Positions 48,290 to 48,756 of a stretch of DNA of 64,000 nt are shown piece after piece. Within the stretch, counting starts at the first letter, position 1, and each line of letters begins with the position of its first letter. Source of the stretch: an uncultured Candidatus Saccharibacteria bacterium (GTDB taxonomy: Bacteria > Patescibacteriota > Minisyncoccia > Phycocordibacterales > CAIRYW01); assembly GCA_964406475.1 (NCBI GenBank), contig CAYORS010000001.1, positions 35,881 through 99,880 of the forward strand, given 5' to 3'. Under the pieces are notes generated by a model. The model saw only the letters and a program-made list of their open reading frames with translations, made no database searches and was not told the origin of the DNA. A program made the position numbers and the translations under genes.

Positions 48290-48756
48290 CCCAGGAGTCG
48301 AACTTCTGGGGTGGGGGGACAGTAGGATGTCGATCATTACATGACCAGTACGCCTTTCGGCTAAAATTTTCTTGAAATCAATTTAAGGCTCAAAAGTTTT
48401 TCGATTCGCAAATACAATTAATAGGATCGCGAGTACGCTTATCGACCCTTACAGGGTGGGGTATATTGGTGCACTTTGTGGTCACGAATATTTTGCTTAT
48501 TGTCTCTTGCTTGGGCGCAGGGTGTGGTCACACATAAATTTCTACTGAAATTTTGCGATTCAATTAGTAGGACCGCGAGTACGCTTATCGCCCTCGACTA
48601 AATTCTGCTACCCGCAGAATTTGTCTGGGCACCAGCTCGTCTGTTTCTGAAGCTTCAGAAACATGACTTCGCTGTTCGATTCCTACACGCAGGCAAAATT
48701 GTTTGCCTGCTTGGGCGCACCAAAAATAAAACACCCGTTTGAGGGTGTTTTATTTT
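48290..48756. repeat. tRNA-Lys-associated structured repeat element, locus B
   Basis: TTACA-loop hairpins at 48333-48347 and 48444-48457. Two gcgagtacgcttatcg units 146 nt apart (48429-48444, 48575-48590). Module 48628-48662 about 94% identical to 387-421. Inverted T-arm copy gttcgattcctacac (48674-48688). Hairpin gcaggcaaa/tttgcctgc (48689-48710). Inverted acceptor copy ttgggcgcacca (48711-48722). 25-bp perfect palindrome 48712-48767 overlapping the tRNA-Lys 3' end. Confidence 0.5.

Follow-up and report, generated by a model that had tools for sequence, protein, structure and literature searches.

We analysed a 64,000-nucleotide stretch of the genome of an uncultured Candidatus Saccharibacteria bacterium (contig CAYORS010000001.1, positions 35,881–99,880; hereafter 'the window') and found seven copies of a family of structured elements. 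To judge from sequence comparison, the 16-mer GCGAGTACGCTTATCG is the most conserved segment of this family, whose members span 135–165 nt. The elements have a common fold, are conserved across the Candidate Phyla Radiation (CPR, or Patescibacteria), are coupled tail to tail to tRNA genes, and copy the 3′ end of the partner tRNA. The best overall explanation, to which we give slightly better than even credence, is a CPR-wide structured RNA element that would act as a small RNA mimicking the top half of a tRNA.

The window is a segment of bacterial chromosome that encodes PolA, holA, a pseudouridine synthase, a CCA-adding enzyme, and Fic, together with four tRNA genes identified by ARAGORN. The elements mark four loci, named A (300–700), B (48290–48770), C (53200–53430), and D (62990–63200), and each tRNA locus abuts one of these.

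The conserved 16-mer

Three exact copies of GCGAGTACGCTTATCG are present:

48429–48444, plus strand: 16-mer copy 1, in unit B1
48575–48590, plus strand: 16-mer copy 2, in unit B2
53365–53380, minus strand: 16-mer in unit C

The window holds no further site with two or fewer mismatches, and 100 dinucleotide shuffles yielded no match (zero expected). The two plus-strand copies are spaced 146 nt apart, as stated in the preliminary description, which had reported two tandem units in locus B and an inverted 16-mer in locus C beside the same hairpin. The latter observation extends to a 29-mer, GCGAGTACGCTTATCGACCCTTACAGGGT, that spans the TTACA hairpin and is identical in B1 (48429–48457) and, as the reverse complement, in locus C (53352–53380). 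The coordinates first given for the units are right, except that the first quoted string begins at 48415 rather than 48414, and GCGAGTA is, as had been noted, the antisense of the tRNA-Gly acceptor 3′ strand (665–671, plus strand).

A k-mer dot-plot of the four loci revealed shared modules. These include the 29-mer, the distal 12-mer TGCTTGGGCGCA (48508–48519 in B1 and 48708–48719 in B2), which together with a 17-mer is all that B1 and B2 have in common, and three blocks shared by locus A and B2 (GGCACCAGCTCG, a block beginning TGTTTCTGAA, and TGTTCGATTC). The loci had been regarded as mosaics of shared modules in variable order. Covariance model hits place all four in one family, but the order of modules is fixed (P1, P1a, P2, P3, T-loop-like strand, P4, tail); the apparent mosaic is due to the existence of two architectures, the optional loss of P1a, and the decay of some copies.

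Fold and covariation

The element opens with P1, a 6-bp closing helix (nTAGGA/UCCUAn) that reproduces the T-stem of the neighbouring tRNA. The dinucleotide CC follows and directly precedes P1a, a mini-hairpin of the form GCG-AGUA-CGC. P2, a stem of 9 bp (UAUCGAnnn/nnnUCAGUA), includes an invariant U·G pair and a C×A mismatch and is capped by a UUACA loop in architecture I or by an inserted hairpin in architecture II. The 16-mer thus combines P1a with the 5′ strand of lower P2 (TTATCG). After P3, a long and variable hairpin, the single strand UUUCGAUU with its T-loop-like UUCGAUU leads into the P1 3′ strand. The P4 hairpin then sits exactly between the equivalents of tRNA positions 65 and 66, and the 3′ tail duplicates the acceptor 3′ strand, discriminator, and trailer of the partner tRNA, plus CCA if this is encoded by the tRNA gene, before continuing into a long perfect palindrome common to the element and the convergent tRNA gene.

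Seven copies, including B2, have architecture II. P1, P1a, the T-loop-like strand, P4, and the tail are as in architecture I; the middle differs. P2 is CGACC/GGTC, which covaries with CGCCC/GGGC in B2, hairpin P2′ replaces the UUACA loop, and P2′ is followed by GUCUGGnCACCnGCUCG and then by a different P3.

RNAalifold, applied to a MAFFT alignment of 14 copies, predicts 41 pairs, with compensatory changes in 26. Covariance model R1, built from 13 copies (unit C is in its seed alignment, A3), matches 31 copies across the window plus the 16 loci first obtained from other genomes, and 40 copies in metagenome loci. Among 38 distinct high-scoring copies, 95.9% of cells are paired (72.7% in column shuffles), double-sided changes occur in 29 of 39 pairs, and the covariation score is 0.55, a value that none of 500 shuffles reached (0.13 in shuffles) and that falls to at most 0.11 when partners are slid by 1–3 columns; these alignments were fitted to the model, which favours the structure, but the independent MAFFT/RNAalifold result and the single-sequence fold of B2 agree with them. 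Even the 3-bp P1a covaries (GCG/CGC to GUG/CAC), its middle pair being CG in 31 copies, UA in five, and GC in two. The minimum free energy structure of B2 on its own equals the family consensus (z = −7.5), and unit C as a single sequence folds with z = −4.5. Around the 23-mer used for the genome searches described below, long invariant blocks alternate with segments that vary in sequence yet remain self-complementary. In its occurrence in several lineages and its helices compensated above controls, the family resembles conserved structured non-coding RNA. An alternative helix, AUCGA/UCGAU, in which P1 is extended and P1a bulged, was discarded because A-to-C variants in the T-loop-like strand are uncompensated.

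Copies in the window

Model R2 (architecture II, with B2 in its seed alignment) was run on the whole window with filters off and assigned 165 bits to B2, 61.3 to A1, 51 to C, and 34.8 to D. Together with R1, it defines the following units:

305–482, plus strand: unit A1, architecture-II-like, first of a tandem pair; R2 61.3 bits, E = 1e-13
479–620, plus strand: unit A2, architecture I without P1a; R1 53.2 bits, E = 2e-10
48318–48407, plus strand: unit B0, partial and decayed; R1 36.5 bits, model positions 11–104 only
48415–48533, plus strand: unit B1, the first unit of the preliminary description; R1 33.7 bits
48561–48722, plus strand: unit B2, the second unit of the preliminary description, intact architecture II; R2 165 bits (in seed), R1 70 bits
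53251–53394, minus strand: unit C, intact architecture I, with the 16-mer at 53365–53380; R1 129.5 bits (in seed)
62987–63140, plus strand: unit D, divergent, architecture-II-like, without P1a; R2 34.8 bits, E = 5e-7

Unit A1 contains GGCACCAGCTCG, a hairpin, and GTTCGATTCTCCCAC, and has 12-mer and 10-mer seeds in common with B2. In A2, P1 and the tail copy the T-arm (TTCGATTCTCCC) and acceptor strand (TACTCAC, compared with TACTCGC) of tRNA-Gly, with identities of 11/12 for the T-arm part and 7/8 for the tail. Unit B0 retains TAGGA, the TTACA hairpin, AGTAC, and TTTTCGATTC and lacks P1a, P4, and the tail. Judged by its sequence, B1, which precedes the intact B2, has decayed: the P1 5′ strand (48422–48426), P1a (48429–48438), and the P2 hairpin with its TTACA loop (48439–48457) are in place, but degradation has affected P3, the T-loop, and P4, GGTAT has replaced the conserved AGTAC, the tail is reduced to the remnant TGCTTGGGCGCA at 48508–48519, and the single-sequence fold is not significant (z = −0.6). 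The parts of B2, all on the plus strand, are as follows:

48567–48572: P1 5′ strand
48575–48584: P1a
48596–48625: inserted hairpin P2′
48640–48663: P3b hairpin
48675–48681: TTCGATT
48681–48686: P1 3′ strand
48689–48710: P4
48712–48722: tail TGGGCGCACCA, identical to the 3′ end of tRNA-Lys

Compared with tRNA-Lys, B2 is identical at 8/8 tail and 12/12 T-loop positions. The tail of unit C, TGGGAGCACCA, equals the tRNA-Arg 3′ end (8/8), and its P1 (TAGAA) contains one A·C mismatch. Unit D has no adjoining tRNA; it starts at the TAG stop codon of an open reading frame (ORF; 62171–62989) without Pfam match, has its own 7-bp acceptor-like pair (GCGAGAG/CTCTCGC), and is followed by a terminator hairpin (63147–63169); it could be released from an mRNA 3′ end.

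Arrays A and B both open with a G-rich run before or at the first unit (GGGGGGGGG, 308–316; GGGGTGGGGGG, 48308–48318), and an antisense T-arm-like hairpin, CCAGGAGTCGAACTTCTGG, lies at 48291–48309, upstream of B0.

Tail-to-tail coupling to tRNA genes

The tRNA genes of the window and the palindromes that they share with the elements are:

663–734, minus strand: tRNA-Gly(GCC), partner of A2; ARAGORN, Rfam tRNA 67.9 bits
770–844, minus strand: tRNA-Arg(TCG), just upstream of tRNA-Gly on the same strand
48757–48832, minus strand: tRNA-Lys(UUU), partner of B2; Rfam tRNA 72.7 bits
53139–53213, plus strand: tRNA-Arg(GCG), partner of unit C; ARAGORN and Rfam
616–665, both strands: perfect palindrome with 23-bp arms (616–638 is the reverse complement of 643–665), shared by A2 and tRNA-Gly
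48712–48767, both strands: perfect palindrome with 25-bp arms (TGGGCGCACCAAAAATAAAACACCC and its reverse complement), the outer arms being the B2 tail and the tRNA-Lys 3′ end
53203–53261, both strands: perfect palindrome with 29-bp arms, common to tRNA-Arg and unit C

ARAGORN labels the gene at 48757–48832 tRNA-Stop (tta). A suppressor tRNA was nevertheless rejected in favour of tRNA-Lys(UUU): in the Infernal alignment the loop reads CUUUUAA and the first pair of the anticodon stem is non-standard (G27·A43), and the orthologous genes of related loci receive the label Lys(ttt). Accordingly, nothing points to recoding of stop codons.

In each palindrome of the window, the inner part resembles a bidirectional intrinsic terminator and the outer part consists of the tRNA acceptor 3′ strand and the element tail. 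Inspected by eye, the terminator features comprise ACACCC-loop-GGGTGT between AAAATAAA and TTTATTTT, at sites not listed by the consensus scanner. Every tRNA transcription unit of the window ends in a perfect palindrome of 23–29 bp that includes the acceptor 3′ strand, CCA, and an A/T-rich trailer. Such palindromes are far longer than ordinary terminator stems and, if read through, have the length of an RNase III substrate.

To quantify the coupling, model hits for 66 copies were combined with ARAGORN calls. A tRNA gene lies within 700 nt downstream of 41 copies and is convergent in all 41 cases (co-oriented in none); 28 of these copies lie 17–83 nt from the tRNA 3′ end, and the other 13 are upstream members of tandem arrays. 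A further 7/66 are cut off by the end of the locus. Partner tRNAs are those for Lys, Gln, Arg (GCG, UCU, and CCG), Trp, Gly, and Ser; the Val, Leu, and His tRNA genes of one locus (L025) have no detectable copy.

At another locus (L026), a copy at 4337–4472 is followed by an antisense tRNA-Lys 3′ half (approximately 4510–4560) that ends in the anticodon loop and is not called as a tRNA by ARAGORN; this may be an intron-containing gene of the kind described previously (PMC13011429).

Some copies without tRNA (L009, at 1846–1935, 2699–2790, and 3830–3925; L013; L023; L019; and L040) are followed by a conserved block, CCAGAACAGGAGATTATTATAA, with a −35-like TTGTCC inside the palindrome arm and a TATAAN box 17 nt further on. 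After this block comes a conserved ORF of 16–20 codons (beginning MRELFEKVRYIREM, and also MESLYNKLLFIKALQKEVIK and MKGLYNQLMFIKALQKEN), none of which is found in the window; synonymous differences among the three L009 copies of this ORF suggest a real small protein.

Copying of the partner tRNA

Among the 28 adjacent pairs, the tail matches the last 8 nt of the partner at 8/8 positions in 19 and at 7/8 or more in 24, a level that comparisons with non-partner tRNA types attain in 2.5% of cases only. Partner positions 54–65 correspond to the T-loop-like strand together with the P1 3′ strand, with 10–12 of 12 nt identical. Unusual T-stems (those of Arg-UCU, Arg-CCG, Ser, and Gly) are tracked as well, with the variants CCTGT, CTCTGG, CTCCC, and ATCTC, and the tail contains CCA only if the partner gene does (B2 and C). 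The acceptors of tRNA-Lys vary between species (TGGGCGCA, CGAGGGCA, CGAGCGGA, CGGGCGCA, and CGGGCGGA), and each companion element follows its own tRNA, which indicates co-evolution, either through selection or through conversion within the palindrome. With its T-loop, T-stem, and acceptor 3′ strand ending in the discriminator, the element has the predicted make-up of a tRNA-like top half.

The element 5′ end is homologous to an antisense tRNA 3′ end (right palindrome arm, antisense acceptor, and TAGGA). This homology is clearest in tandem arrays, where a palindrome of the same type arises between a unit's tail and the 5′ flank of the following unit. An acceptor-like helix beyond P1 reaches 10 bp in L012 and 7 bp in L002 and L014 and is short or absent in many other copies; an extension of at least 4 bp is found in 42% of copies and in 15% of mismatched controls. 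In architecture II, RNAalifold predicts this helix across P4, with compensatory changes.

Antisense tRNA-Gly (665–688, plus strand) reads GCGAGTA-GGGAGA-ATCGAAC, and the invariant core of the family reads GCGAGTA-CGCTTA-TCGAAC. The core may descend from an antisense tRNA-Gly 3′ end nested within a second antisense tRNA 3′ end.

Distribution and age

The 23-mer TAGRAYYGCGAGTACGCTTATCG, which covers all three window copies of the 16-mer, was scanned across one genome per species, where approximately 0.1 match is expected by chance. It occurs exactly at 16 loci in 16 different species. Fifteen of these loci belong to metagenome-assembled genomes of Patescibacteria/CPR (labelled Nomurabacteria, Paceibacterota, or Saccharibacteria), the exception being a 4.9-kb contig binned as Rhizobiaceae. 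A narrower 23-mer, TAGGAYCGCGAGTACGCTTATCG, is found exactly in 32 further metagenome contigs and in no viral contig, and a phage origin was rejected on the latter ground. Many matches in both scans are located at contig ends.

No two copies in the window exceed 55% identity. Unit C, on the other hand, is 72–74% identical to copies located beside Arg-tRNA genes in other genomes, and copies beside tRNA-Gln or tRNA-Lys cluster across species, with some within-genome pairs in addition. Low identity within the window and higher identity across genomes point to old paralogous lineages rather than to a recently spreading repeat.

Strand and gene neighbourhood

The T-loop motif reads correctly only on the strand of the 16-mer. 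In the first set of copies, G·U pairs outnumber A·C pairs by 64 to 11. In the clean set, the G·U pairs are concentrated at two P3 positions (in seven and six copies, from different loci), whereas all A·C pairs are singletons, a pattern that favours the 16-mer strand without proving it. G·U pairs in the acceptor-like helix were given less weight as strand evidence, because U-rich 5′ flanks pair with G-rich tails nearly by default.

Of 36 scorable upstream ORFs, 22 diverge from the element and 14 have its orientation, so that most copies would need a promoter of their own in a divergent region of 40–220 nt. Unit C lies 91 nt after fic, and some copies, such as D and C, could be 3′ extensions of mRNAs. 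Ten ORFs flanking copies at ten loci and ten ORFs of the window revealed no recurring protein family; the neighbours are unrelated housekeeping genes. An IS110-family transposase (DEDD_Tnp_IS110 and Transposase_20; L042, 2699–3757, minus strand) diverges from one copy, and a DUF3800 protein (L010, 1850–2566, minus strand) lies beside another; both are probably incidental.

Interpretation

We consider that the element probably functions as an RNA on the 16-mer strand. In the proposed mechanism, it would be transcribed on that strand as a small RNA, in which P1, often with its acceptor-like extension, and the T-loop-like strand would present a mimic of the tRNA 'top half'. The small RNA would then be terminated, trimmed, and stabilized by tRNA enzymes in the manner of the partner tRNA, and the invariant P1a/P2 core, with the 16-mer inside, would be the binding site of a conserved protein or RNA partner. 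That these parts act as such a mimic, conferring tRNA-type 3′-end formation and stability, and that the core binds such a partner is a tentative proposal, somewhat short of an even bet.

A more far-reaching version is doubtful and is put forward as speculation. Many CPR tRNA loci would encode a dedicated 'shadow' RNA that co-evolves with the tRNA as a re-wired mimic and might serve as a cognate-specific decoy, sensor, or competitor. Its acceptor and T stems would come from the partner tRNA, a domain resembling the D and anticodon domains would be inserted in the T-loop, and P1a would act as the elbow partner; the 9-bp P2 would end in C-UUACA-G, which resembles the anticodon loop of tRNA-Val(UAC). 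Its conceivable targets are tRNA end-processing, CCA addition, or tRNA-directed nucleases in these host-dependent cells.

Several observations weigh against a tRNA-mimicking small RNA. No tRNA gene adjoins 18 of the 66 copies. In the clean set, with the invariant U·G pair excluded, G·U exceeds A·C by only 22 to 14, and the invariant pair itself is mirrored by the neighbouring C×A. Architecture II has no G·U excess, and non-invariant G·U amounts to approximately 1.6%, so selection at the DNA level or on both strands is possible. A consistent sigma-70-like promoter at a fixed upstream distance was not found (the aligned flanks contain no fixed −10 box), and promoter consensus scans returned no more sites than in shuffles. 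Tail identity could stem simply from selection for the palindrome or from gene conversion. The 5′ acceptor strand is weak or missing in many copies and may be a relic of the preceding palindrome arm; U-rich flanks, as remnants of terminator U-tracts, pair with G-rich tails almost by default, and P4 interrupts the 3′ strand. Finally, the T-loop-like strand is not closed by a stem of its own and accepts substitutions that real tRNAs never show (several copies have C for A58; unit C has CUUGAUU).

Alternatively, the element might be an extended palindromic stalk for termination or processing, generated by inverted duplication of the tRNA 3′ half and having a core with no trans-acting role. Such a stalk might be kept because a long hairpin stops transcription both ways or offers an RNase III site at which the tRNA precursor is trimmed. 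The arms of 23–29 bp are indeed perfect, including the non-functional A/T-rich trailer, they are present even at copies without tRNA, tails in tandem arrays pair with the 5′ flank of the following unit, and a palindrome automatically yields a tail identical to the tRNA. However, a stalk has no need of P1a, P2, and P3, and yet 23–38 nt around the 16-mer are invariant across CPR classes; P2, P3, and P4 covary and lie outside the palindrome; and the decayed B0 and B1 have kept no palindrome while the intact tRNA-adjacent copy has, as would fit a gene plus its relics. We regard the stalk as an unlikely explanation. Slightly less credible is selfish repeated DNA that targets tRNA 3′ flanks, whether similar to miniature inverted-repeat transposable elements (MITEs), to repetitive extragenic palindromic (REP) sequences, or to palindrome-associated transposable elements (PATEs), with hairpins recognized as DNA by a transposase or recombinase. 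Several copies per genome, tandem arrays, seven copies in 64 kb, hits at contig ends, a low G·U content nearly equal to A·C, the GTAG-like start, terminal inverted repeats (P0/P1), and the IS110 transposase adjoining one copy are all in keeping with it. MITE- or REP-like families have many near-identical copies in one genome, whereas the copies in the window show the high divergence reported above, and copies beside the same or related tRNAs in different genomes are more alike, the opposite of what an active repeat would produce. Nor was a target-site duplication seen by eye, no transposase recurs beside copies, viral contigs gave no hits, and the ends of each copy match its own tRNA rather than the family consensus.

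A functional RNA on the tRNA strand, whether it prolongs the tRNA transcript at the 3′ end as a structured extension or serves the following gene on that strand as a 5′ leader, seems very improbable. In its favour, the first ORF past the element runs in the direction of the tRNA in 22/36 cases, helices can form on either strand, and the invariant U·G and C×A are symmetric. However, tRNA and element have a terminator-like hairpin between them, the flanking ORF runs in the opposite direction in 14/36, the recurrent G·U pairs would become C·A mismatches, the T-loop motif would be antisense, and copies without tRNA have no upstream promoter there. Chance similarity, low-complexity sequence, or an assembly artefact from collapsed or chimeric repeats is effectively refuted by the empty shuffles, the recurrence of the same architecture in 48 independent assemblies, and the covariation.

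Significance

CPR/Patescibacteria genomes are small (approximately 0.5–1 Mb) and contain little non-coding DNA. Despite this compactness, the window spends approximately 1 kb on its seven copies, and the invariance of the 23–38-nt core across classes argues for strong selection, probably for a conserved partner. If expressed, the element would be among the most widespread CPR-specific non-coding RNAs and a new way to build a tRNA mimic; if not, it is still a conserved and unusual arrangement at tRNA 3′ ends, one overlooked by annotation pipelines. The presence of these repeats at many contig ends may reflect assembly breaks, and they could give rise to mis-called tRNA fragments.

Comparison with known systems

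No Rfam 15 family matches the element (cmscan at gathering thresholds for the whole window, and at E up to 10 for loci B and C); the search returned only the real tRNAs and chance hairpin matches, such as microRNA models on the palindromes. ARAGORN and cmscan call only the four real tRNAs and none on the units (loci B and C, E up to 10), and the window contains neither an ARAGORN tmRNA (transfer-messenger RNA) nor an Rfam tmRNA hit. Hairpin, hammerhead, twister, and other ribozymes were set aside for want of Rfam hits and because their core motifs are missing, and a likeness of GGACC...AGUACG to the 23S sarcin-ricin loop was dropped because the strands come in the wrong order for that motif. 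The literature searched yielded no description of the element. The nearest published case is that of the group I introns in Patescibacteria tRNA genes, which sit at position 35/36 in the anticodon loop and self-splice (PMC13011429). They too are an RNA peculiarity of tRNA loci in the same phylum, whereas the element lies outside the tRNA and on the opposite strand, and the window has no Rfam Intron_gpI hit.

With REP sequences and bacterial interspersed mosaic elements (BIMEs), the element shares the form of an intergenic hairpin repeat, often between convergent genes and potentially a terminator or RNA stabilizer. REP families are near-identical within a genome and species-specific. In contrast, copies of the family described here have diverged from one another within a genome but are conserved between classes; they are also much larger and linked to tRNA 3′ ends.

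The rtT RNA and the 178-bp tyrT repeats of Escherichia coli (RF00391) are tandem units beyond a tRNA gene, co-oriented and co-transcribed with it, and restricted to enterobacteria. The tyrT repeat units carry the 3′-terminal nucleotides of the tRNA, so that tRNA-processing enzymes can free a small RNA. The likeness lies in a repeat unit with a copy of a tRNA 3′ end that adjoins the tRNA gene and forms tandem arrays. The element differs in being convergent in 41/41 cases, in having its tRNA copy split by a hairpin, in its multi-helix core, and in its CPR-wide occurrence; RF00391 gave no match on loci B or C in cmscan at E up to 10.

Bacterial Y-RNA-like YrlA, the tRNA-like domain of tmRNA, the mascRNA of MALAT1, and viral 3′ tRNA-like structures are used, or have been proposed to be used, for recognition by tRNA enzymes and for RNA stability. 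Like these modules, the element has a T-stem and a T-loop-like strand, and in some copies an acceptor-like helix is predicted to stack on the T-stem. Unlike them, it accommodates an additional P1a–P2–P3 domain between the 5′ strand of the T-stem and the T-loop, and it has a hairpin that interrupts the equivalent of positions 65/66, a resemblance to one particular neighbouring tRNA, and no tag ORF. We rate the element as new to Rfam 15 and to the literature searched, and as a variation on the theme of tRNA-like and tRNA-linked small RNAs.

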